In this document: one piece after another, positions 2,068 to 39,854 of the stretch
How the letters are laid out: the number at the start of each line of letters is the position of its first letter
How positions within the stretch are numbered: position 1 is the first letter of the stretch
IMG/VR virus record: IMGVR_UViG_3300032134_000003
Location: 1-58,320 of that record
Source of the DNA: a virus
Taxonomy: Duplodnaviria; Caudoviricetes
Strand: one strand, 5' to 3'
DNA length: 58,320 nucleotides
Notes under the pieces: model-generated
Databases searched by the model: none
What the model saw: only the letters and a program-made list of their open reading frames with translations
Told to the model about the DNA's origin: nothing
Made by a program: the position numbers and the translations under genes

Positions 2068-5000
2068 ATGCCCAGACGAATACAGCTACCTAATGGCAGA
2101 TGGGTCACCGTTCCCGACATGGATCCATATGTGCAGCAGATTATGGATCGTCGTCGCGGCCTTGAAGAGGAAGAAGAGGACGAAGGCACCTTAGCCGGAT
2201 CTGCATGGGAAGGCATTAAGTCCATACCGAGCGGTGTGGCAGATATATTTTACTCCGGCCTCCAAGCCTCTATCGGCGTAGCCACGCCATTTGCAGACCT
2301 GCCTGTAGAGAGGCGGTTGCGCGAGCAGGCTTCAAAAAGAGCGCGTGAGAGAGACCCCGCCTATCAGGATGCCTTCCTTCCCGCAGTTGGTACGGGTGTT
2401 GGTCAGGTCGCAGGGCTCAGTGCCATTAGCCGACTTCCATATGGATGGCACGCCGCTGTGGGCGCTGGTGTAGCTATGGGCATTAGTGATCAGACACGCC
2501 GCATAGCAGACTACGAGCAAAAAACTGGTACAGATGTGCCTTGGTACAATGAAAGCGCAGCACATCTGGCGGGTGCCCTCATCGGATTGTCAGAAGTGGT
2601 TCCCATCAAGTTCGGGATGTTTCCGGCTTCTGTGTCAAAAATGATGACCAGAATGAAGGGTGGCGTCACCCCTAATGCGGGTGGCCGTATGTCGCTACTG
2701 GAAAAGAAGTATGGACTTGGTGCCGCTGCGAGCATGGCCATGCAAGAGGCCACGCAAGAAGCATCTGCCCAATGGCTCCAGTCTGTTACTGCCCGTGGCC
2801 TGTATGATCCTGACGCTATGCAAGACTTAGCTCACTCCATGGCGGAGGATTTCAAGGTTGGTGGCGCTGTCGGAGGGCTGGTGAAATTGGTTCAGCATCA
2901 AATGCTTAATCCCAGGCTTAGGACGGCTGACCGGGATTTGGCGGCAGAAGGATCATTAAGAAGCAGCAGGGGACGAAATTATGCACTAGCAAGGGAACTC
3001 GACGACAACATTACCGGAATAACTAGAGAGTTGCCGGAGCTATTAACAAACGTTGGCGTAAATCCAATACTTGCTCGTGACATCAGTGAACAGTTCGGGG
3101 GCATAACGGCTGCTATACCCCGTGGCATGGACACAATACTAAAATCTGGCAGCATCACGCAATCAGACGTTCGGCAATTGGTGGTAGAACTCCAAACCAG
3201 AACTGACCGCGCCAAGAGCGAGCTAGACAGGTTGATCCAACATCGTCCGGCCTCAAGACAGGAATATGAAAAAGCAAAGGCCGCCTTAGATGTAATGACT
3301 GCCGATAGAATTAAAAACTTGAGCAGAACTACAACCGAATTGCGCGGTGGGCTTGGCGATATGGGCGGCCTTACTGGGAATGAACAGTATCAAGAGGCTA
3401 GACAGGCGGACCTAGAGTCCGATACTGGTGCCACAAGAGAAACTGTGATGGGCGTCTACGAGACGAGGAGGCAGGCAAGGCTGAATCCAGACGATCCCAA
3501 GACAAAGGGCGTATGGGCCTCGTTTAAGTCAGCGATACGATCTCTAATGGGTGGCTCATTTGGGATAGGTGGGTTCTATCAGATGGCCGAAGACCTGGGG
3601 GTTCGCAGGGGGCCAGGCTCAGAGAAAATAAATTTAGGTGTCGATCCGAATCTAGCATTGTCGGACATGGGGCTCGCTTCTTCCGATAGGAGCAGCTTCG
3701 ACGCCGCAGAACTTGGGGGTGTAATATTTGGTGGCCGTGGCGACCATAGCTCATCTACCCCTCAACGAAAAGTTGATAACAGTGATGTCATGGACAACCT
3801 TGTGTTTCCAGACATTATGCTGGAGGCAACGAGGGGTCCCACGGGCGTACAGTTGGTGGGGGTCAGGGCACAACTGAAGGCGTTGGAAGAGAGGAAAGCA
3901 AAGTTAGAGAAGCAGATTGACAACCTTTACGAAAAACATCCGTTCACCCGTGAGATGGATGAGATAGCAGAGGAAAGAAAGCACGCCGATGACGAAAGTT
4001 GGGTGCAGTACAGAGACTTGAGTCAGGAATTCCTCCTTAAGCAGACTCAAATGGTTAAGGCAAATATATCACAACTAAATCGCGAAAGAAACGATATTTA
4101 CTTGCGCCTACTTAACCAGAGGCTTCAACAAGCTCAAGATTATTTTGCGATTAAGGGTAACCTTGGATACAAGCAGTCAGCCGCCAAGCGAGTCCTTGGT
4201 AAGGCAGATGTAAGGGCTTTTGATACATGGCTTAATGGAACTATCGCTTCTGTGAACCAGAGCCAGATCAATGGCCAGAATATGGCCCAGCTTGCCGCAG
4301 ATCAGCGTGCAAAATTTGAAGCAGGGTTGGCCGCAGAGACAGACATCTCAAAGGACGCCAAGGCTGCGCTAACGGTCAAGTTTCTTTCTCAAAATGCACA
4401 GGAGTTTGGCACTCAACCCCGTGATATCTCCGCACGGCAATTTATGCAAGTTGCCAATCTTTTCGGTGCCGACTCTAAGGTTGTGAAGGCCCGTGCCCAG
4501 GGCGCATTCGCCCTGAAGGCGCTAAGTGACATCGCTAGGTGGCAGGTAGATGACAGACTGTATGATGTGACCGTGGACGGGCTGCCAGACATAAACGAAA
4601 GTGCGCCTGTAGTAAAACAATTTTTAAGCAAGCTGGAGGGGCTAGTTACCGACAAGAAAACTGGAAAGGTTTCCTTGGAAGAGGGCAAGCCAGGGTATAT
4701 TTCTGATGGGGACATTGTAGAGCTTCTTAGGTCTAAAAATATTTACCTCAGGGACGAAACAAGGATCGGTGAATCGTTAGCAAAAAAGACGAAGACCGGG
4801 GTAAAGAGCAAGCCGTTTGAGAAGTTGCTTCTTGATATGACCGGGGCATTAAGCTGGGAAAAAGCGACATACTCTCAAAGGCTGCTGATGTACTCGCGCT
4901 TGTTGCAGCTTCCCGCACATTACACTGCTCGGGGCAACCCCGAAGAACAACGCTTCCTAGAGGGGAAGGGGGAGCTAGACTACAGACCTCTTTTCCTGCC

Positions 5001-8000
5001 TGACTTTTATAACGACCCAAGCATTGATAGTCATACAGACTTTATGATCGACGAGGTTGCGAATATAACAGATCAGGGGCACCACAAATGGCCATCCCGA
5101 GCAATCGGTACACTGAAGAACAGAACCCAAACGGCGTTGGGTAAAGAGTTTGACAGTGAGTCGTTTTATGAGGCATTGGCGCGGCTAATAGAAACTGGGG
5201 TTTTCAACCCCACGGACTCAGCCGCCCCTGACGTTATCATATCTCCAGACTCATGGCTTTATGCCGCTCCGACAGACGAAAGCCAGCTTGAATTAGGACA
5301 AGACGCCGGAGGCCTGGGAGACCCCATAGCAGAGGTGCCGACAAGAGCTGCCCAGAAAAAGGAGTACGAGAGCAGGGAAGGCGAAAGGCAAGCAAGTGCG
5401 GTCAGCAATTCCAGGGTGCGCCTTAATGTGGAATACAAGGCGCTGGAGGATCCATGGGCTCCGACAAGCGAGGGTATGACGCAGCCTGGGGACACGAGGG
5501 CGCAAGACGAAGCATTCTGGGTCAGGGAATCAAAGCCACAACTTGTCAATAGACTCTTGACGGACCCCGATGCGATGTGGGCTGGTCAAGTTGACGAACT
5601 ATGGGCGAGATATAATGAAAAAAATACAGGCAAGCCGATAAGCAGGGAGGACTTTGTAAAACGGTTTACTGCGCTCATCACATCTACTTCTATGTTACAA
5701 GAACTTAGTGACATGGAGGTCCTAGATACCGTCCGGGGCGTGGTGGCACGCGGCAAGACAGCACCTACCGAGGACCTGCTTGAGCTAGGAACTGCCGAGG
5801 GTCGGAGTCTGGTCCAAAGCCTGATAAAGGCTGGCGCACTCCCTTCTTCTTTGCAGGATGACATCCATGCCAGGAGAAGGCGGTACGTCGATACGATGAC
5901 GAAGCGATTTGAAATATTGGATGCAAAGGTTGAAGAGGTTTTCAAATCAACACGGCTCCCAGACAACATACAGCGTCAATATGTAGATGATCTCGACGGG
6001 TTATACCAATTTCACCGCGATGTGGCAATTGGCGGTAAGCGGATGGAGGGCGTTCGTGCCCTGTACGACGCTCCCGGCAACAGGATCATCATCAACCTTG
6101 CCTTGGTTGATCCCAACGACATGGCCAGCGCACAAGAGGTTGTAAAAGATGCAGCCTTCCACGAAGGGCTACACGCGCTAATAATGCGAGATCATTTGTT
6201 GGACGAAGAATTAAAAACACTACGCAACTTCGTCAGAAACCAACAAAACATAGTGCCAAAGGAGGTGGACCCGGACGCGCATGATGCGAAAGTAACGTGG
6301 TTTGAACGCGCCATTGCACAGCACAAGGATAGCCAGCTAACCGAAGGAGATATTGAAAATGAAGCTATTATCTCCTTGCTACAAAACATGGTACGCAACC
6401 CCGATGCGTATGTAGCGGGCAAGAAAACCCGCAAGATCGGTGACGATCTCAGGGGGTTCCTTGAGAAGTTTGTGGGTGCAGCCAAGGATGCTGACATCGT
6501 TGACGTTATGAGAATACTTGGACGAATAGAGCGTGGCGAAGTTGGTGAGCGTGGGTCTGGGTTTGGATTCATAGATGGCGAAGAATACACAGACGATTCT
6601 ATAATTAGATCCAATATGCTGCTCCGTTATGCAAACCCAGCAGACATAAAAGAACTAAGAAAAGCTATTGTTCTGCGCGATGCTGCACCGTCTGATGGGA
6701 TGAGGCAAAGCGAACAGGCAAAGGTAGATGCCATTGCTGACAGGATCACCAATAGGCGTGAAATTATTCAGGGATCGGCAGGGCCGCCCCCCAGTGCGGT
6801 GACGAGCGTAGAGGATGAGCGCATCTTGCACGAGCACATTAATGCCACAGCTAGGGGGTCCCAGCCATTGCTGGCCCTAAGGTATGGCAAAAAGGACCCC
6901 GAGGCGTACAAGCTAGCCCTAAATACGTTCATAGAAACGCGCAACAAGGATCCCGAATACGCCTACAGGATGCCCGCTGAATACCAAACGCTCTTTGATA
7001 ACAAAGGGGATCTTGATCAGCCGGGAGATGATACCAGAAAAAGGTGGATAGACGCGGGGTGGGTTACGCCAATAGACGCGGACGCTACAAGAAAAAGTGT
7101 TAAGAAGTTATCGGATCTTGATAACAAAACTGGAGATACCGTTGAAGAGACAGAGAGCAACTTCGATAAAACTGTTGAAAACTTACGCTATCTATACTTG
7201 GATCGTCGCCAGTGGGTCGTGAAGCAGACCGACAGACTCCTAGCTGCACAGAACAGGGCAGAGTTAGATGCCGAGACATCTGCCTTGGTTATGTGGCGCA
7301 ATTCTGACAATGCACTTAACTGGCTACCGGGGCTGATGCTTAGGGGGCCATTGTCCTATTTGGGCACATCAGTTGGATCCGGGAGATTTGAAAATGCACC
7401 CGTTTATGACAATGATCTAGCGGAAAAATTCGGAGGCGATGGCCGGATCGGAGGGCTCAATGAAATATTTGCCCCGATTATAGATTCCAAGGACCAAGAG
7501 CTTGCAACCATCTACGGTGCGGCCAAGAGGATACTATGGACGAAGAAGCGCCGTGACGCACTCAGGTCTGCGACTGGGCAGTACGGCCCACTTGGAGATC
7601 GTACTTACGACAGGAGTGATCTCGACCCCTCAACAAGACTCAAGCTGGAAAAATTTGAGGCCGCATATGTGGCCATCAATGAGAACGACAGAATCAGCGA
7701 AGATGAATTAAATCAAACCATCAGAGATGTAGAGGAAGGCAACCCACATATCGTAGAGTTCTGGGATCGTTATAACGCATACGACAATCACATGATTAAG
7801 ATGTCGTACAACACTGGCATGATCACCAGGGAGGTTCGTGACGAGTGGATGGCTATGCCATATGCGCCGTTCTATCGTGACGTAGCTACGGAAGAAGATT
7901 TTCCGGTAGGCTCACGGCAAGAGATAGCCAAGCGTGGAAAGAATCTGGTAGAGAAGGCCCTGAAGGGTAGTACGGGACCGATAAAAACATCCTTGGCGGA

Positions 8001-9948
8001 TGGGATTATCCAGAACACGCAGGCATTGGTTCGCGATGCCATGATGAACGCGGCAGTGTCACGAACAGTTAGGGACGCCGTGTCCCTGGGTGAAGCAAGA
8101 AAAATAAAGATCAGTGCCCTGGAGGGCGTTCTTGATAACCGTGTTGTGCGAGTCATGGAAGAGGGCGTCCCGGTTTTTTATGAACTTGATGATGTCCGAC
8201 TTGCTATGTCCACAATGCTACTGGGATACAATCCCAAAAAGCAGTTGCAAGAATTATTTGGAGAACACAAGGCTGGCGAACTCACGCAGAAACTCCTTAC
8301 GGGCTCTTCGGAGTTGTTAAGAGAAGCTGTCACAAGGACCCCACCCTTTGCTTTAAAGAATGTTTTCAGGGATTCTTGGAATGCCATGAGCCTTACTGGC
8401 GGGGGACCAAAGCTTGTTCTTCAGGCGTTTAAGAATGCTTTCGATGTAGACATATTGCGTAGAGCGGACGAGGCCGGACTATCAATAGGGGTCGATTTTG
8501 TTGCGGAGCCTGGCAGGTTCGGTGAGAAAATGAAGAAGGAACTTGATAAGGCCAATCTAGATTGGAAGAATCCGCGCTCCCCCTTCGCCGCACTTTGGAA
8601 TTTCACAGGGCGTATCGCCAAGCAGTCTGAAGTCTCGACTAGGCTTGCTGTATATGATCGCGTACTGGCCATGACGGGGAACAAGTCGCTTGCACAGTAT
8701 TACGCCATAGAAATTATGAACTATGGCCGCAGAGGTTCAAGCGCAACGCTCAGTACATGGATGTCTACTGTGCCGTTTATGAACGGCAGGATGCAGGGCC
8801 TTGATGTTACCTATAGGGGCCTTCGTGGCAAGAAGGGTTCCTCTGATATTCCAGGGATTGCTGGGTACGGGCTAACTGCCGATCAGTATGAAGATCTTCC
8901 CGCATGGCAGAAGAGTACAGGGTCGGTCCTGGGGCGTGGCCTTATTTTGACCGCCGCAACCGGAGCCCTCTACCTCTTGATGCGAGATGATGAGGAGTGG
9001 CAGGACCTGAGGGATGAGACCAAATCTGATAACTGGGTGCTTCCCCTGTCAGATCATGCGTGGCTAAAGATCCCCATACCATTTGAAATCGGCGTTATTT
9101 TCAAGGTCATTCCGGAGAAGATACTTGAAGCGATTTTTGAAAAAGACGTAGGCGCGGTCGATGTGGGGGAGGAAGCTTATCGACAATTACGCACCTCACT
9201 AAGCATAGGGGGACCACAACTGTTTGCCCCAGTAGTTAATGCGATGCGTAATTACGATACGTTCAGAAAGGATGACATAGTTGATCATTGGATGGAAGAA
9301 ACCCTGTCCCCCAACGAGCAACGTAATTCGTATACAAGCAATGTCGCTCGGGGTATGGCAGACCTAGCCAACAGTATACCATTGGTTAAAAACCTAGACT
9401 TTCTAACATCTCCCATGAAGGTCGAATACATGATGCGTCAGTACGGCGGCACGATGGGGGGTTATGTGATAACGGTCGCGGACAGGATAGCCCGTACTGG
9501 GCCGCTCGCGGATGAAAGCGTGGTCGGCACCAACAAAGATTTTGACTTTAGGTCCATGGTCGGTGGCGAAGGTGTCGCCAATGTCCCCATCCTTGGCGAC
9601 CTATTAACTGACCCCAGAGGGCGCGGGGGCAGGCAGCAAGAGTTCTATGAGGCCCTGGAGGAACTTGATCTCGTCGTCGCTACGCTAAGAAGTATTACCG
9701 AAAGGGATCACCAAAGGGGCTTTACTTACGCAGAGAAGCACGCAGGTCTGCTGGAGAATCAAAGTCAGTTGAGGTCTATTGGCAGACAGTTGAAAGAGTG
9801 GCGCGAAGACAGGGATTATCTGGCAGAGATACCTCGCTCATCAATGTCTGATGACAGGAAGCGAGAGAGTTACAAGAGGTTACTTGAAGATCGTCAATAT
9901 ATTTTAAGAGACATTGATGCCCTGATGGAATCTATAAACCGGAGATGA
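2068..9948 (+). CDS. Large polyvalent virion protein (zincin-like metallopeptidase + C-terminal LPD38-like domain)
   Basis: 2626 aa; ALYDAPGNRIIINL...FHEGLHAL (HExxH); C-terminal DEEWQDL...NWVLP...KIPIPFEIGVIFKVIPE resembles LPD38. Confidence 0.75.
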   Translation: MPRRIQLPNGRWVTVPDMDPYVQQIMDRRRGLEEEEEDEGTLAGSAWEGIKSIPSGVADIFYSGLQASIGVATPFADLPVERRLREQASKRARERDPAYQDAFLPAVGTGVGQVAGLSAISRLPYGWHAAVGAGVAMGISDQTRRIADYEQKTGTDVPWYNESAAHLAGALIGLSEVVPIKFGMFPASVSKMMTRMKGGVTPNAGGRMSLLEKKYGLGAAASMAMQEATQEASAQWLQSVTARGLYDPDAMQDLAHSMAEDFKVGGAVGGLVKLVQHQMLNPRLRTADRDLAAEGSLRSSRGRNYALARELDDNITGITRELPELLTNVGVNPILARDISEQFGGITAAIPRGMDTILKSGSITQSDVRQLVVELQTRTDRAKSELDRLIQHRPASRQEYEKAKAALDVMTADRIKNLSRTTTELRGGLGDMGGLTGNEQYQEARQADLESDTGATRETVMGVYETRRQARLNPDDPKTKGVWASFKSAIRSLMGGSFGIGGFYQMAEDLGVRRGPGSEKINLGVDPNLALSDMGLASSDRSSFDAAELGGVIFGGRGDHSSSTPQRKVDNSDVMDNLVFPDIMLEATRGPTGVQLVGVRAQLKALEERKAKLEKQIDNLYEKHPFTREMDEIAEERKHADDESWVQYRDLSQEFLLKQTQMVKANISQLNRERNDIYLRLLNQRLQQAQDYFAIKGNLGYKQSAAKRVLGKADVRAFDTWLNGTIASVNQSQINGQNMAQLAADQRAKFEAGLAAETDISKDAKAALTVKFLSQNAQEFGTQPRDISARQFMQVANLFGADSKVVKARAQGAFALKALSDIARWQVDDRLYDVTVDGLPDINESAPVVKQFLSKLEGLVTDKKTGKVSLEEGKPGYISDGDIVELLRSKNIYLRDETRIGESLAKKTKTGVKSKPFEKLLLDMTGALSWEKATYSQRLLMYSRLLQLPAHYTARGNPEEQRFLEGKGELDYRPLFLPDFYNDPSIDSHTDFMIDEVANITDQGHHKWPSRAIGTLKNRTQTALGKEFDSESFYEALARLIETGVFNPTDSAAPDVIISPDSWLYAAPTDESQLELGQDAGGLGDPIAEVPTRAAQKKEYESREGERQASAVSNSRVRLNVEYKALEDPWAPTSEGMTQPGDTRAQDEAFWVRESKPQLVNRLLTDPDAMWAGQVDELWARYNEKNTGKPISREDFVKRFTALITSTSMLQELSDMEVLDTVRGVVARGKTAPTEDLLELGTAEGRSLVQSLIKAGALPSSLQDDIHARRRRYVDTMTKRFEILDAKVEEVFKSTRLPDNIQRQYVDDLDGLYQFHRDVAIGGKRMEGVRALYDAPGNRIIINLALVDPNDMASAQEVVKDAAFHEGLHALIMRDHLLDEELKTLRNFVRNQQNIVPKEVDPDAHDAKVTWFERAIAQHKDSQLTEGDIENEAIISLLQNMVRNPDAYVAGKKTRKIGDDLRGFLEKFVGAAKDADIVDVMRILGRIERGEVGERGSGFGFIDGEEYTDDSIIRSNMLLRYANPADIKELRKAIVLRDAAPSDGMRQSEQAKVDAIADRITNRREIIQGSAGPPPSAVTSVEDERILHEHINATARGSQPLLALRYGKKDPEAYKLALNTFIETRNKDPEYAYRMPAEYQTLFDNKGDLDQPGDDTRKRWIDAGWVTPIDADATRKSVKKLSDLDNKTGDTVEETESNFDKTVENLRYLYLDRRQWVVKQTDRLLAAQNRAELDAETSALVMWRNSDNALNWLPGLMLRGPLSYLGTSVGSGRFENAPVYDNDLAEKFGGDGRIGGLNEIFAPIIDSKDQELATIYGAAKRILWTKKRRDALRSATGQYGPLGDRTYDRSDLDPSTRLKLEKFEAAYVAINENDRISEDELNQTIRDVEEGNPHIVEFWDRYNAYDNHMIKMSYNTGMITREVRDEWMAMPYAPFYRDVATEEDFPVGSRQEIAKRGKNLVEKALKGSTGPIKTSLADGIIQNTQALVRDAMMNAAVSRTVRDAVSLGEARKIKISALEGVLDNRVVRVMEEGVPVFYELDDVRLAMSTMLLGYNPKKQLQELFGEHKAGELTQKLLTGSSELLREAVTRTPPFALKNVFRDSWNAMSLTGGGPKLVLQAFKNAFDVDILRRADEAGLSIGVDFVAEPGRFGEKMKKELDKANLDWKNPRSPFAALWNFTGRIAKQSEVSTRLAVYDRVLAMTGNKSLAQYYAIEIMNYGRRGSSATLSTWMSTVPFMNGRMQGLDVTYRGLRGKKGSSDIPGIAGYGLTADQYEDLPAWQKSTGSVLGRGLILTAATGALYLLMRDDEEWQDLRDETKSDNWVLPLSDHAWLKIPIPFEIGVIFKVIPEKILEAIFEKDVGAVDVGEEAYRQLRTSLSIGGPQLFAPVVNAMRNYDTFRKDDIVDHWMEETLSPNEQRNSYTSNVARGMADLANSIPLVKNLDFLTSPMKVEYMMRQYGGTMGGYVITVADRIARTGPLADESVVGTNKDFDFRSMVGGEGVANVPILGDLLTDPRGRGGRQQEFYEALEELDLVVATLRSITERDHQRGFTYAEKHAGLLENQSQLRSIGRQLKEWREDRDYLAEIPRSSMSDDRKRESYKRLLEDRQYILRDIDALMESINRR

Positions 9949-26049: not shown

Positions 26050-26553
26050 CTAGAAATTTCCCTCGGCTACTTGAAATACCGTGAGCCCTAGTTCCCGATA
26101 GGCTTTTACCACCGTGGCCCTGTCATCAAAGATGATGTCGGGCGGGTGATCCCAGTCGATGAACTCCATCTTGGCAACGTGATCGCGACGGCGGTCGCCA
26201 TCCTTTCTCATCTTCAAGCGCCACGATGAATCGACCAACCGGCTTAACTTCACAAGATACAGAGGGTAACCCCATCCCTTCGCGCATACCTCACGGGTCA
26301 GAACGTATTTGTTCAACCATTCAACTGTCGTGTCCCGCTCGGCTTCCCTCCTGCCCGTCCAGAACTCCACGGTATGACCCGCAAGCATTAGATCTTGGCA
26401 AAGTTTCACGGTCTGAGGTATCGGAGCGTCCCGCTCGCACGCTGCAAAGAATCCATCCCAATCTTTTTTCTCGCCCACCGACTCGGGTTGGATGAAGTGC
26501 AGACGATGGTCTAAATTCGACAGTGTATTGTCGATATCGAATACAATTTTCAT
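26050..26553 (-). CDS. HAD-family phosphatase (T4 PNK 3'-phosphatase-like domain)
   Basis: FDIDNT, TGR, K and FDDR HAD motifs; FQVAEGNF end. Confidence 0.85.
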   Translation of the reverse strand: MKIVFDIDNTLSNLDHRLHFIQPESVGEKKDWDGFFAACERDAPIPQTVKLCQDLMLAGHTVEFWTGRREAERDTTVEWLNKYVLTREVCAKGWGYPLYLVKLSRLVDSSWRLKMRKDGDRRRDHVAKMEFIDWDHPPDIIFDDRATVVKAYRELGLTVFQVAEGNF

Positions 26554-28364: not shown

Positions 28365-28802
28365 ATGACTAATCCCAATGGTGTTAGCCCGAAACAGTCG
28401 GCGTTCGCGGCCTTTGTGGCTGAAGGCGATAGCTACACGGACGCCTATCGCAAGGCGTATGATGCGTCGAACATGAAGGATCAGGTGGTGTGGAACGCAT
28501 CGTCTCGACTGGCGAAGAACAAGAAGGTGCAACTGCATATCGACGCACTAAAGAAGCGTGACGCCACGGCGGTCAAGGCGCAGGAGAAACTAAGCAAAGA
28601 CTGGGTGGTTCAGCGATTGCAGGACGAAGCGCAGAACAGTAAGAACCCTGCCGCGACCCGCGTGCGGGCACTTGAGTTGCTTGGCAAGACAAGCGGATTG
28701 TTTGAGGAGTCTACTCACATCACGTTTGAGAATCGTACCCCTGAAGATGTCGAGAAAGAACTGCTAGAGAAGCTGGCTGTCTTGTTCCCAGCGAAGGCCT
28801 GA
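28365..28802 (+). CDS. terS: Terminase small subunit
   Basis: SPKQ..FA..V..G.S..DAYRKAY...ASSRL...V...I...RVRALELLGK..GLF pattern. Confidence 0.8.
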   Translation: MTNPNGVSPKQSAFAAFVAEGDSYTDAYRKAYDASNMKDQVVWNASSRLAKNKKVQLHIDALKKRDATAVKAQEKLSKDWVVQRLQDEAQNSKNPAATRVRALELLGKTSGLFEESTHITFENRTPEDVEKELLEKLAVLFPAKA

Positions 28803-29151
28803 TAGCAGGGGTAGTATAGTAGGGGTTGGGTATGTTAAAAATCAGATGGGGAAGTTTTCCCCCACATGATTTGGACTAACCCAAGCTAGGCACCCGTACC
28901 TCGTGCTGGGGTCGGCTGGACTGATGGGGAAATTTTCCCCAAGGGGTCGAGGCACCCGTACCGCGCGGCTGGCGCAGGGGTGGGGCGGGGTGGGCGGGGC
29001 GGGTGGCGGGGTGGCTGGGCGGGGTGGGCGGTTCGCAGTTAAAAACAAGTCGCGAGCACATTAACATCACCTTCCTTACTAGCTCGCGTCCTCGCTGTTA
29101 AAGCCGCGAGCGACACTAGCTCGCGTCCTTTCGCTCTGGCCCTCGTGGAAC

Positions 29152-29191
29152 AAAAAAAAGGGGACAGTCAAGCCGAAGCCTGACTGTCCCC
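29152..29191 (-). terminator. Rho-independent terminator
   Basis: Minus strand GGGGACAGTCAGGC-TTCG-GCTTGACTGTCCCC followed by T8. Confidence 0.85.
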
Positions 29192-29203
29192 TGGTACTGG
29201 TTG

Positions 29204-29425
29204 TTAGTCCTCTAGGTTGAGGACGATCTGGTCGATATCCACGAACGGTTCGCGGTCCTTGCTGTAGTGCAGATCCAACTCGTGGACACTCTCGTCGAGT
29301 GCCCGATGCTTCCATGCGTAGTACTCGTAGTAGGCTTCCTCGTAGCTTTCGCGGGTTCTAAGGTTACCCAAGAGGAGGTAGTCCCGGTAGTCGTTCATAA
29401 ACCGGAGGAATGCGTCGTCGTTCAT
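29204..29425 (-). CDS. Small acidic/aromatic hypothetical protein
   Basis: AAGGGG RBS before ATG 29425; 73 aa; bracketed by duplicated hairpins. Confidence 0.55.
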   Translation of the reverse strand: MNDDAFLRFMNDYRDYLLLGNLRTRESYEEAYYEYYAWKHRALDESVHELDLHYSKDREPFVDIDQIVLNLED

Positions 29426-29486
29426 GCTACGATACCCCTTGGGGACAGCCAAGCCGAAGCCTGACTGTCCCCGGTAGTGAGGGAGA

Positions 29487-30350
29487 TTAGCGGTCCGTGA
29501 GCTTGGGACGCGCTTCGCGGATGGAGAATTCCGAATCTCTAGCTTCGTCTAAGAACTTCCGGATGATCGTATTGTCACTGGCGAGGCGGGACTTACAGAT
29601 CTCTACGGCCCCCTGAGCGGCTAAGAAAACCTCGCCGCTAGGTAGGAGGTGTATAACGACCTCGACATCCTCGGTCTTTCCCTTGGGGCCGAAGGTGGTG
29701 GTGGTGTATTCTTCCTTCTTGCCATCCACCTCACGAGTCTCGACTAGATGGGTCGATGCATAGTCCTCGCCCATCAGCCGACGCCGCCCATCCTCCGCGA
29801 TGCCTACGGCGACTTTCATGGTGCTCTGCGCCGCTCGCGTACGCAACGGATTGGACAGTATGTGACAGAGTTCTGTCCAGTTGAGTCCGTCGGCTCCCTT
29901 GACCTTGGCTCTGGCGTAGGCATCACGGGCCAGTGCCGGATCCAGCTTGATGCACTCGACGGTATTTTCAAGGACGCTCCTTCTCATCCGGATACCTTTC
30001 GTCGAGTTCTTCTTGGCGTCACTCAGGCTCAGTGACGGAGCCCTACCGACGCCTTCGGCCGCCGCCGCCGTCTGCTCTGAGTGGAGGGCTACGACCTTGC
30101 GCTCGGCACCATCCTTGGCCGCCTCAAAGTCGAACTCAATGTCATCACGCATCCGTTTCGTGTCCTTGAGGACGCTGGGCGGGGCGTTGGTCCAGGCGAT
30201 GCCCAGATCCACGAAGTACTCCGCGCTCTTGCGGTCGGCTTCATTCTTCTCGCCGGTTCGCATGGTGGCTTCGGCTACGCCTGTGACGTAGGCCTGGACC
30301 GCCTTCGCTCGGGCCGCGACGTACTCAGCGACTGTTGCTCGTCCTGACAT
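29487..30350 (-). CDS. Hypothetical protein (287 aa)
   Basis: AGGAG RBS before ATG 30350 (MSGRATV...); the longer ORF-track start runs into the structured region. Confidence 0.7.
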   Translation of the reverse strand: MSGRATVAEYVAARAKAVQAYVTGVAEATMRTGEKNEADRKSAEYFVDLGIAWTNAPPSVLKDTKRMRDDIEFDFEAAKDGAERKVVALHSEQTAAAAEGVGRAPSLSLSDAKKNSTKGIRMRRSVLENTVECIKLDPALARDAYARAKVKGADGLNWTELCHILSNPLRTRAAQSTMKVAVGIAEDGRRRLMGEDYASTHLVETREVDGKKEEYTTTTFGPKGKTEDVEVVIHLLPSGEVFLAAQGAVEICKSRLASDNTIIRKFLDEARDSEFSIREARPKLTDR

Positions 30351-30392
30351 GATACGTTCTCCTGGTAATGAGCAGACATTGCTGCTCGGGTT

Positions 30393-30930
30393 CAGCACGT
30401 TTCGTAGGTGTGCTGTTGTATCCCCCTTCCTTTTGTCTGGGTGGCGCTCACAAGCAGAGTCCTGGCGGCCACTGAAATCTGTATGACCAACGGGAAAGAT
30501 TTCAGGGGGCGTCAGGCGACACTTGTGTTCATTTCTGGCTTGCCAGGAAATGACAGCGCCGGGTCCCCAGACAAATACATTCTGGGATACACACACTCAG
30601 AACCCACGCAGACACTAGCGTGCGTGGGTTCTGACGCTCAGTCCTGGGCAGCTTGTTTCCTCTGGAAGCCAACTGGGTGGGCTGTTTGGGTCAGTTGCGG
30701 GAAATGCGGGAATCCCGATCTTGATCGGTTGACCGCATTTGGCTGACAGTAGGCTCGGATTCGGGAATCCCAATCGGTTCCGTGACCGATTGGTTGACCG
30801 TATCCGGGCCTTAGGGAGCAAACAAGCTGTTGATTCGCAATTTAAAGGCGCGGAGCTACAACCGCGCCTGTGGATTCGCGGAGCTACAACCGCGAATCCG
30901 TCCTGCGAATCATGTCCCAGGAGGCGTCGA
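30393..30930 (+). ncRNA. Putative large structured non-coding RNA
   Basis: More than 15 nested complementary segments, G-U pairs and CUUG tetraloops favouring + strand, duplicated loop motifs, no credible ORF. Confidence 0.7.
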
Positions 30931-31109
30931 AAAGAGCCCTTGCACCATTCGTTCCGCGACGAGAGGGGGGTGAGGGGGACCCCCCCTGCTGGAGGTTTGA
31001 GGTTGTCTACACTATAAACAGTGTTTTGCTCAAACGGTGGCCCAATTTTAAACTCTACCACTTCTTCCCACGAGCCATTGCGCTTCAGAACTGATTCTTC
31101 GTGGCAGTC

Positions 31110-31241
31110 TAATATCTAGATTGAATACCTAGCTAGATTATTATTTTAGGTTACTAGGCTAGATTATCTAGACTAGATTATTTAGTCTAGATTACCTAGT
31201 CTATATTATCTATATAGATAATTAGGATAGAAAGCTTCTAG
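31110..31241. repeat. AT-rich CTAG/CTAGATTA repeat array
   Basis: 10 CTAG in ~126 bp; CTAGATT(A) five times. Confidence 0.8.
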
Positions 31242-31405
31242 ATGCTTGGGGGGACGGCGGTGCCAAAGGGGATGAGTTTGGCCAAGGCGAGTGCGTTAAC
31301 GTTGCTACTGGGTGCATCGACCCTGGTGGCTCTGCGCTATGCGGCCAAGTATGGTTGGCTGGCAGGCACAACGCACTGGATGACGTACAAACACAGAGGG
31401 CGTGG

Positions 31406-32899
31406 ATGGCCGTAGACATCGCAGAGATCACGAAACAACTAAACTCCATTTCGCCACACAGCCGAAAAGAGATCTTAGTTCTTCTGAACGAGTTGTCGGA
31501 AGCCAAGCAAAGGATTGACGCTCAGAACGACTTCCTGACGTTCGTTAGAAAAATGTGGCCCGCATTCATTGAGGGCAGTCATCACAAAGTCATGGCCGAT
31601 GCTTTCAATCGCATAGCGGATGGCAGCTTGAAGCGACTGATAGTGAATATGCCTCCCCGCCACACAAAATCAGAATTCGCATCTAACTTATTCCCAGCCT
31701 GGTATCTCGGTAGGTATCCGGACAAAAAGGTTATCCAGACTGCCCACACAGCAGAGTTGGCAGTTGGATTTGGGCGGAAGGTTCGTAATCTCGTGGGGTC
31801 CCATGGTTATAAGAAAATATTCACCGACGTATCTCTAAGTTCGGACTCTAAGGCGGCAGGTCGTTGGGACACCAATAAGCGTGGAGAATACTTCGCTATT
31901 GGCGTAGGCGGTGCCGTCACGGGTAAGGGTGCTGATATTCTTATCGTGGATGATCCGCATTCTGAGCAGGAAGCTGCGCTCAAGGACCCCTCAGTGTATG
32001 ATCGAACGTATGAATGGTATACGTCCGGTCCCCGGCAGAGGCTCCAGCCCGGAGGTGCGATCTGCTTGGTGATGACTCGGTGGTCAAAACGGGATCTGAC
32101 TGGCAGTATTATTAAAGCATCCATAGAGAGAGGTGGCGCAGACGAGTGGGAGGTTATTGAGTTTCCCGCAATCCTGCCCAGCGGGAAGTCGCTGTGGCCT
32201 GGGTTCTGGCCGATAGAGCAGCTTGAGTCGTTGAAAGCAGAACTGCCCATATCCAAGTGGAGTGCCCAGTACCAGCAGGATCCGACTTCTGAGGAAGGCG
32301 CGATCATTAAGCGTGAGTGGTGGAATGAGTGGACGGAAAAAGATCCACCTCAGTGTGATTTCGTGATTCAATCGTGGGACACCGCGTTTCTTGCAAAAGA
32401 AACCGCCGACTACAGCGCGTGTACGACCTGGGGTGTATTCACGAACAGCAAGGACGAGCCAAACATTATCCTACTAGATGCGATACAGGAGCGTCTGGAG
32501 TTTCCTGACCTGAAGGCCCGCGCCTATGAAGTCTGGAAAGAGTACAAGCCGGATGCGTTTATCGTGGAAGCAAAAGCTGCTGGCACCCCATTAATATTTG
32601 AACTCAGGAGAATGGGAATCCCGGTTGCGGAGTACACCCCCAGCCGTGGCAAGGATAAGATTGCTAGGACAAATGCGATTTCTGATATATTTTCTTCCGG
32701 GCTCGTGTGGGCACCCAAGAAAAGATGGGCCGAGGCGGTCATCGAAGAATTCGCCTCATTCCCAAATGGTGATCATGACGATCTCGTAGACTCATCTACA
32801 CAAGCACTGTTGCGGTTTCGGCAGGGTGGCTTTATTTCGATCAAGAGTGATGAGCCGATGGAAGAGTTTTTCCCAGCCCGCAAAGCAGACTATTATTGA
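31406..32899 (+). CDS. terL: Terminase large subunit
   Basis: MPPRHTKS Walker A-like, LIVDDP Walker B, QYQQDP, SWDTA and HDDLVDS nuclease motifs. Confidence 0.95.
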   Translation: MAVDIAEITKQLNSISPHSRKEILVLLNELSEAKQRIDAQNDFLTFVRKMWPAFIEGSHHKVMADAFNRIADGSLKRLIVNMPPRHTKSEFASNLFPAWYLGRYPDKKVIQTAHTAELAVGFGRKVRNLVGSHGYKKIFTDVSLSSDSKAAGRWDTNKRGEYFAIGVGGAVTGKGADILIVDDPHSEQEAALKDPSVYDRTYEWYTSGPRQRLQPGGAICLVMTRWSKRDLTGSIIKASIERGGADEWEVIEFPAILPSGKSLWPGFWPIEQLESLKAELPISKWSAQYQQDPTSEEGAIIKREWWNEWTEKDPPQCDFVIQSWDTAFLAKETADYSACTTWGVFTNSKDEPNIILLDAIQERLEFPDLKARAYEVWKEYKPDAFIVEAKAAGTPLIFELRRMGIPVAEYTPSRGKDKIARTNAISDIFSSGLVWAPKKRWAEAVIEEFASFPNGDHDDLVDSSTQALLRFRQGGFISIKSDEPMEEFFPARKADYY

Positions 32900-39277: not shown

Positions 39278-39326
39278 CCCTGACTATCAATTTATTGATA
39301 GACACTAGCCACGACAGGAGAAACTA

Positions 39327-39854
39327 ATGGCTAACACAACTTTTTCAGGTCCAGTACGGTCGGAAAACGGATTCCAATCCGTTGATAGGAGCGGCACAAC
39401 TGGTGCCATTACTACTAGGGTGGTTCTAGGTAAGGGTGTCGGACACGCTTCAGGCGTTACGGTTAATACCACAGCAGGCGATAGCTCCGCTATCGGTGAG
39501 TTTACCCAGCCAGCCAACACTGTCATCACCGCAATCAAAATTGTGTGTATCACCGCTCCGGTTATCGGAACGGGAGACATTGGGCTTGAGGTTGGAACAT
39601 CAAGTTCCGGTGCCCAGATTGTTGCGGCGATCACCGATCATATCCTAGACGGCGGCACGACTGTCGTTGTTGGCAATGTCGTAGATTGCACACTGGTAGG
39701 CACAACGCATAGTGGTACTACGGCTCCGGTATCGCCTCAGTACACTGGTTCCGAGCGGACGGTTTACTGCAATATTACAAACACTGTAGATGCTACCACT
39801 GCGGGATCGTTCACATTCATTATCGAATATGTTACGACTGCGTCGCTGTCCTAA
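39327..39854 (+). CDS. Virion structural protein
   Basis: MANTTFSGPVRSENGF start, beta-rich, AGGAG RBS. Confidence 0.6.
   Translation: MANTTFSGPVRSENGFQSVDRSGTTGAITTRVVLGKGVGHASGVTVNTTAGDSSAIGEFTQPANTVITAIKIVCITAPVIGTGDIGLEVGTSSSGAQIVAAITDHILDGGTTVVVGNVVDCTLVGTTHSGTTAPVSPQYTGSERTVYCNITNTVDATTAGSFTFIIEYVTTASLS

Follow-up and report, generated by a model that had tools for sequence, protein, structure and literature searches.

The REP/BIME elements of enterobacteria are extragenic palindromic mosaics that differ from one close strain to another; as parts of operon transcripts, they act via RNA structure, for example by stabilizing mRNA, and their REP units, of ~35 nt and with a consensus sequence, are dispersed in hundreds of copies. 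In the RNA II/RNA I system of ColE1, specificity resides in the loop sequences, and variants form new compatibility groups. In T4-type phages, hairpin-containing intergenic motifs termed promoter-early stem-loops (PeSLs), which are short composite promoter-terminator motifs flanking swapped genes, are reported to border segments that have been inserted, deleted, or replaced among very close relatives (PMC2839356, PMC4122927). A structured RNA from the terminase gene region, cabRNA, is reported for staphylococcal phages (PMC10686824). Here, we describe a hypervariable cassette of nested hairpins at positions 30365–30921 (557 nt, + orientation) of a complete viral record of 58,320 bp (IMGVR_UViG_3300032134_000003; this whole stretch is referred to as the window). 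The cassette lies between terS and terL, the genes of the small and large terminase subunits. For 30393–30930, an earlier note made from the sequence alone had proposed a new class of noncoding RNA, a multidomain structured molecule of ~540 nt situated between these two genes, and the placement is confirmed by matches of the neighboring genes to phrog_51 and phrog_38.

The stretch 30365–30921 is one interchangeable allele of a fast-changing non-coding cassette in a clade of marine phages, and its slot has the ribosome-binding site of ORF287, a conserved leftward gene, on one side and a promoter-like block preceding terL on the other. For comparison, 80 related loci were gathered via terL and 22 via ORF287 (labeled L), and DNA contigs were compared from four public metagenome runs, X2, X4, X8, and X14, among about 20 DNA runs that contain the locus. 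Relatives lose BLAST identity to the window after 30364 and regain it from 30922 on. The flanks of L003 are 95.5% (30011–30364) and 97.5% (30922–31354) identical and enclose a 510-nt insert that cannot be aligned with the 557 nt of the window; L005 and L006 likewise carry an unalignable insert, and the flanks of these three loci are 91–97% identical. X2 and X4 hold the window allele nearly unchanged, with two differences over 30088–31500 in X2, whereas an X14 contig joins 30364 to 30946 through 501 other letters. X8 contains window-allele contigs as well as a contig in which 30364 is followed by the initial 30 letters of the L003 insert, both alleles co-occurring in this one metagenome run. 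Contig joints and loose ends fall at 30364, in the Shine-Dalgarno (SD) segment of ORF287.

All-against-all BLAST of 14 gaps separates at least five allele families, with two to three independent sequences each: type A (the window and, in part, L011), type B (L003, L005, and L098), type C (L007, L045, and L105), type D (L013, L100, L101, and, in part, L099), and type E (L011). A non-coding gap of ~0.7–1.6 kb is present at the slot in every relative examined. It is kept next to leftward genes with only a distant relationship to ORF287 (L017 and L019) and next to those with no detectable one (L021, L026, L029, and L035). The idea of one conserved RNA class has to be given up, since relatives with 95–97% identical flanks replace all 557 nt and at least five allele families are present.

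The self-complementarity of the stretch is far beyond chance. In a base-by-base check of the 14 helices that the earlier note had listed, 13 have equal arms and zero mismatches, with 107 Watson-Crick pairs, 4 G-T pairs, and 0 A-C pairs; the remaining helix, 30529–30539/30542–30553, has arms of 11 and 12 nt and therefore carries a bulge. The minimum free energy fold of 30393–30930 gives the same domains as the listed helices, in agreement with the dense nested pairing described earlier. z-scores on both strands were obtained for the window allele and for L003. For 30393–30930, the + strand reaches −266.7 kcal/mol versus −195.8 ± 7.1 in 100 dinucleotide shuffles (z = −9.97), and the − strand reaches −249.0 versus −174.7 ± 6.7 in 100 such shuffles (z = −11.02), with 0 of 100 controls as good on either strand.

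The fold consists of two domains separated by a hairpin. Domain 1 (30417–30591, +) has an outer scaffold that is common to L011 5147–5345 and bears an exchangeable tip arm (30460–30510, +). It is followed by the perfect 14-bp hairpin that had been noticed by eye (30597–30634; arms 30597–30610/30621–30634) and by Domain 2 (30642–30922, +), which contains two duplicated arms and twin hairpins with identical 8-nt loops, the twins being an exact 18-nt duplicate. The two stems said to be capped by CUUG are both present, with loops at 30539–30542, closed by a G-C pair, and at 30720–30723, closed by a T-A pair. Domain 2 has no homologue in the searched collections, a distant-mode search with 30351–31354 returned no similar DNA in cultured phages, and the cassette matches only itself within its own genome. 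Exact-pattern scans of IMG/VR returned only already known contigs for the window allele and none for the twin hairpin.

Comparison of the alleles shows that they are mosaics of nested hairpin modules, in which outer scaffolds are kept and inner arms and tips are exchanged. In L011, the scaffold of Domain 1 is near-identical to that of the window, and another hairpin takes the place of the apical arm. The 34-nt apex of the tip arm in the window (30472–30505) recurs at the apex of a giant hairpin in L003 and L005 and is absent from their homologue L098. A contig from X8 skips exactly 30460–30510 (joint 30459/30511), i.e. the tip arm. In type C, the long-range scaffold is kept around swapped inner hairpins, and type D behaves alike. 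Four allele families carry a non-palindromic loop motif, GCYTCAYC, at the tips of hairpins, and its orientation is + in all cases (L007 1545, L013 5350, L091 568 (−), L098 431 (−), and duplicates). L091 and L098 have a longer tip module in common around this motif, with compensatory changes in its closing stem.

There is good evidence that pairing is maintained within allele families. The type B insert forms one imperfect hairpin of ~200 bp. In L003 (355–864), it folds at −315.6 kcal/mol on the + strand (z = −19.7) and at −251.6 on the − strand (z = −17.5), and the L098 insert folds at −313.5 kcal/mol despite only ~72% identity. In the alignment of L003, L005, and L098, which covers 179 pairs, 96.2% of 524 cells are paired versus 93.5 ± 0.6% in shuffled controls, and 13 of the 179 pairs are changed on both sides versus 4.9 ± 1.8 expected, a number reached in 0 of 500 shuffles. 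When the partner is moved by one to three columns, 38–42% of cells are paired and zero to two double changes are seen. Double-changed pairs number 12 in type C and 28 in type D. The only informative homologue of the window allele is L011, the CUUG hairpin of which differs by one G-C to A-U compensatory change. On the covariation in relatives that the earlier note had raised, the sister type B offers strong support from three sequences, with 13 double changes, and the window allele a single compensatory pair.

The strands of the cassette differ in the mismatches that they carry. Mismatch classes were pooled from the predicted helices of 15 non-redundant cassettes, read in the + orientation; the counts, which are inflated by the G+T richness of the + strand, are 393 G.T versus 229 A.C, 41 G.G versus 16 C.C, 42 G.A versus 22 C.T, and 43 T.T versus 12 A.A. 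In all classes the more stable partner is on the + strand, which makes a single deamination bias a less easy explanation. G.T exceeds A.C in 12 of the 15 cassettes, with ratios of 59:10 in L017 and 20:1 in L003. The L003 insert has 20 G.U pairs in its + fold and 1 in its − fold, and the + fold is more stable by 64 kcal/mol; the + fold is likewise the more stable in 10 of 11 folded cassettes. The keto skew of the cassette (G > C, T > A) is unlike that of both surrounding coding orientations.

Taking together the structure, the modular alleles and their swapping, the compensatory changes, and the bias of mismatches toward one strand, we infer that the cassette may be a + strand structured RNA that is selected for pairing rather than for sequence, an interpretation to which we assign slightly less than an even chance. 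The cassette would act in single-stranded form on the + strand, most probably as RNA made by rightward transcription coming in from the terS side. A search for a sigma-70-like + strand promoter to the left of or inside the cassette found none, so that a + strand RNA would need read-through from the terS unit; on the path from terS to the cassette, only two weak + strand terminator-like sites are present, and the convincing terminators are on the − strand. Extensive base pairing would be under selection, up to a near-continuous helix of ~200 bp in the sister allele, and, with pairing and not a particular sequence selected, the mode of action would most likely be structure-dependent. The transcript might be a long double-stranded-like RNA that undergoes processing or provides adjoining transcripts with protection or insulation, or it might titrate a factor that binds RNA helices.

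Several observations weigh against a + strand RNA. In the window allele, the z-score is no better on the + strand than on the − strand, the fold advantage of the + strand does not exceed what composition predicts, and the G.T:A.C ratio is a modest 16:7; in two other cassettes, L007 and L021, this ratio is tied, and in L029 it is reversed (13:27). Stable RNA tetraloops are not enriched, with 4 on the + strand and 3 on the − strand among 26 four-base loops, and are uninformative as a strand indicator. The mismatch counts come from predicted folds; composition and fold-prediction bias may contribute to their pattern, and strand-biased mutation pressure could mimic it. The compensatory changes rest on three sequences per family, and template switching in DNA quasi-palindromes could also yield such changes. 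A convincing promoter-like motif is present only downstream of the cassette, the left boundary falls exactly at the ribosome-binding site of ORF287, and a − strand tRNA gene is present in the L011 gap, the latter two features fitting leftward transcription. No RNA run is listed as containing the stretch. The earlier assignment to the + strand, which had been drawn from wobble pairs and CUUG loops, is favored by the mismatch pattern and by the compensatory changes of type B, and not by the z-scores of this allele. Of the proposed new class, what stands is the structure, the absence of a match to known families, and the hint of a + strand; a single conserved multidomain RNA of ~540 nt does not stand.

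The alternative that survives best follows from the gene at the left edge of the cassette. ORF287 (29487–30350, −) is read away from the cassette and encodes a conserved protein of 287 aa with 32 homologues, none of them named, at 30–90% identity; by sequence comparison, it founds a protein family that is a real gene family and is confined to marine sources, with hidden Markov model matches reaching the leftward open reading frames (ORFs) of L017 and L019. The AlphaFold2 model of the protein is confident (pLDDT 90.3). It has no PDB or BFVD match at E ≤ 0.001, and VIA-align returns only generic helical bundles (Z ≤ 8.3); the sequence has no Pfam or PHROG match and no tblastn match in the cultured-phage collection. 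The conserved ribosome-binding-site segment of ORF287 (30351–30364, −), with an SD of the AGGAGA type, constitutes the left recombination boundary of the cassette. The cassette could accordingly be read as the long structured 5′ leader of a leftward ORF287 mRNA, a − strand RNA that would start in or near an AT-rich iteron region to the right and would control translation or stability of ORF287 in cis.

We regard this leader model as unlikely. It agrees with the start of the variable segment directly at the SD and with the upstream sequences, at least 11 of 17 of which, by eye, have a 5–9-bp hairpin ending a few bases before the SD. After correction for composition, the − strand folds as well as the + strand (z = −11.0 versus −10.0). 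In L011, a tRNA-Asn (GTT; 5768–5840, −) lies inside the equivalent gap, between the universal block described below and the iterons, and its orientation indicates that leftward transcription exists there. A leftward promoter-like site is present at 31170–31143, although it is a match in AT-rich DNA, where chance matches are expected. The mismatch classes, however, favor the + strand overall and in 12 of 15 cassettes, the + fold of L003 has the advantages in stability (64 kcal/mol) and in G.U pairs (20 versus 1) given above, and the apical loop motifs are oriented on the + strand. In addition, one and the same allele accompanies ORF287 variants with ~3% base differences, and ORF287 proteins of 85–91% identity have different alleles next to them; swapping is independent of ORF287.

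Between the cassette and terL, several elements are conserved. A G-run/C-run element (G6..C7; 30965–30986, no strand assigned) is kept in all allele types, ~40–60 nt before a universal block (31012–31075, +) that is conserved, with invariant alignment columns, in every relative examined. The block contains the promoter-like motif TTGCTC-N17-TAAACT (31026–31054), which is preceded by the palindrome AAACAGTGTTT. Across relatives, the motif reads TTGCNC-N17-T(G/A)(T/A)A(C/A)T with a spacer of variable sequence, and its 17-nt spacing is retained in the five relatives compared (L003, L007, L011, L013, and L017); a scan of L005 gave no match at that position. TTGCTC-N17-TAAACT is the sole match in the genome, and a search for terL-type motifs gave no second consistent site. 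As judged from these sequences, the block is probably the promoter of the terL operon combined with a regulator site. Further downstream, iterons with a 14-nt unit (CTAGTCTAGATTAT) form an array of 6.2 copies at 31129–31212 (no strand assigned) in the AT-richest 120 nt of the genome (G+C fraction 0.26), and CTAGATTA of this array has no other occurrence in the genome. Candidate roles for the array are those of an operator array, a binding site for terS (pac), and an origin.

These neighbors bring in the possibility that the cassette works as DNA, with hairpins extruded from one strand or as cruciforms, adjoining the iteron/AT-rich region as a replication origin or a packaging (pac/cos) site. 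It might then provide single-stranded DNA with a site for priming or loading, or be a topological buffer between divergent transcription units. The proximity of the unique iterons, the conservation of the G-run/C-run element in all allele types, the location between terS and terL, and the equal self-complementarity of both strands in the window allele are in line with such a role. Since DNA, too, tolerates G.T better than any other mismatch, the + strand bias would equally fit single-stranded + strand DNA. A cruciform role, however, predicts no strand bias in mismatch types, and a bias is seen. Origin and pac elements usually covary with their binding protein, whereas the alleles swap without changes in neighboring genes, and long palindromes are a liability in DNA. 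The 127-bp terminal repeat of the record is an assembly overlap and does not mark the physical genome ends. A DNA-level role is, in our estimation, quite unlikely.

A similarly low probability is given to the proposal that the cassette has no phage function and consists of selfish or neutral palindromic modules, such as MITE/REP-like insertions into hairpin loops or template-switch expansions, shuffled by recombination in a tolerant intergenic slot. Hairpin-in-hairpin nesting with tips that come and go, unrelated alleles in one slot, duplicated arms inside Domain 2, the lack of a core conserved across alleles, and the scarcity of canonical RNA tetraloops are all compatible with it. So is a second indel hot spot: contigs of X2, X4, and X14 have 235–239 extra letters at 29196–29210, adjoining a terminator-like hairpin for leftward genes (29159–29192, −; a 15-bp stem followed by TTTTTTT), so that hairpins seem to mark indel junctions there too. 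The modules, however, are not dispersed, the cassette being single-locus in its own genome, and for this reason dispersed REP/BIME or MITE-like repeats are rejected as an identity; nor does the tip motif point to a host origin, as its 36 exact hits in 596 Gb of prokaryote genomes lie in unrelated phyla and are no more than chance (~70 expected by simple arithmetic for 17 fixed bases). A ~200-bp helix that is kept at 72% identity with 13 double compensatory changes, a bias of all four mismatch classes to the more stable partner on one strand, and a ~0.7–1.6-kb non-coding gap that persists in every relative examined, even with a different leftward gene, speak against modules without function.

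Other identities were rejected outright. The cassette had been described as free of a credible ORF, and this is supported: at E ≤ 0.1, Pfam yields no family for the three overlapping ORFs (112, 148, and 92 aa), and close relatives have other DNA at this place, so that coding is rejected. The claim that no known RNA family applies also holds. In a search of the whole record against Rfam 15 at the gathering score, only Mu-gpT-DE was found (39278–39329, +; 55.2 bits); at E ≤ 10, 28700–31400 gave three chance-level rows (best E = 1.7), none of them in 30365–30921. In 19 related loci, Rfam matched only the tRNA of L011, and ARAGORN reported no tRNA in 18 of the 19. Covariance models of GOLLD, ROOL, HEARO, pRNA, group I and II introns, 6S, tRNA, and tmRNA thus give no match to the cassette. 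A retron is rejected because no RVT_1 match is found in the genome, the control genomes having responded, and a type III toxin-antitoxin RNA is rejected because 30365–30921 contains no tandem array.

In the gene neighborhood, terS (28365–28802, +; 145 aa) matches phrog_51 (E = 2.5e−13) and, weakly, Pfam Terminase_2, and terL (31355–32899, +) matches phrog_38 (E = 3e−104) and Pfam Terminase_6C; the portal gene follows. The 514-aa terL frame opens with the TTG at 31355; because the matches of relatives start at residue 11–20, translation of terL probably begins farther downstream. This TTG is overlapped by P0033 (31242–31415), a small ORF encoding 57 aa with a hydrophobic stretch, and, by eye, L005 and L017 contain a sequence resembling that of P0033. 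The interval between terS and terL measures 2.5 kb and also holds two leftward ORFs and the promoter-like block. One of these ORFs has 78 aa, and the other is ORF287. The second copy of the terminator-like hairpin (32 nt, 29441–29472) is 97% identical to the first and 281 nt apart from it. A G-rich, G-quadruplex-prone tandem repeat with units such as GGGGTGGGC is located at 28965–29031 (+), and similar G-runs occur within the L017 gap. Elsewhere in the genome, a polynucleotide kinase homologue (phrog_415) is encoded at 26050–26553 (−), and a protein of 2626 aa with an LPD38 "large polyvalent protein" domain is encoded at 2068–9948 (+). The terL product is 55–57% identical to those of the Pelagibacter phages HTVC027P and HTVC023P and of phage 023Pt_psg01, and by this measure the clade, one of abundant uncultured marine phages, is related to HTVC023P-type pelagiphages. 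The nearest cultured phages, HTVC027P and 023Pt_psg01, have small ORFs in place of the cassette arrangement.

Should the cassette prove to be an RNA, the case would be unusual, that of a large phage RNA with pairing conserved while alleles and tips are exchanged among near-identical genomes in the same water, and the ~200-bp imperfect hairpin of its sister allele would rank with the longest RNA helices proposed to occur naturally in bacterial viruses. Such an exchange pattern normally marks loci under diversifying selection, those of immunity, anti-defense, or compatibility, which to our knowledge are known almost only for proteins. A further step, which we consider unlikely, would be a new class of fast-evolving, allele-swapping giant-hairpin RNAs, built on a near-continuous G.U-rich helix of up to ~200 bp, that act as specificity determinants in marine phages. 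These might confer RNA-based superinfection immunity or incompatibility through exchangeable apical loops, or they might be decoys for host factors or defenses that sense double-stranded RNA, and co-circulating near-identical phages would then differ chiefly in their cassette RNA. If the cassette is instead a DNA-level or selfish element, it would still mark a recombination hot spot adjoining the packaging genes and a conserved promoter/iteron region that may be a late promoter, a pac site, or an origin.

The locus can be set against the known systems as follows. With cabRNA, the cassette shares only the terminase neighborhood; it is intergenic and hypervariable and occurs in unrelated marine phages. 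GOLLD, ROOL, HEARO, phi29 pRNA, and group I and II introns are like the cassette in size range and phage context, but the large phage RNAs of Rfam have a core that is conserved across relatives, and the cassette has none. In behavior, the nearest described systems appear by analogy to be the PeSL cassettes and the REP/BIME mosaics. As in PeSL cassettes, joints and indels are located at hairpins (30364/30946, 30459/30511, and 29196/29210). Unlike in PeSL cassettes, the swapped unit here is itself a 0.5–1.2-kb non-coding stretch of nested hairpins; a search for a PeSL-type composite gave no sigma-70-like promoter in the cassette on either strand and, as hairpin plus T-run, only a weak site at 30636–30649. 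In contrast to REP/BIME elements, the modules are found at a single locus, have no consensus across alleles, and form stems of up to ~200 bp. The RNA II/RNA I system of ColE1 resembles the cassette in comprising a multi-stem-loop stretch of ~550 nt upstream of an origin-like AT-rich region, with a G-run/C-run element. A primer RNA of the RNA II kind would entail a promoter ~0.5 kb ahead of an origin, a persistent RNA-DNA hybrid, and an antisense RNA I; only the G-run/C-run element and the iteron/AT-rich region are observed in the cassette region. By this analogy, ColE1 RNA II/RNA I is a possible functional counterpart for alleles that bear different loops and circulate together.

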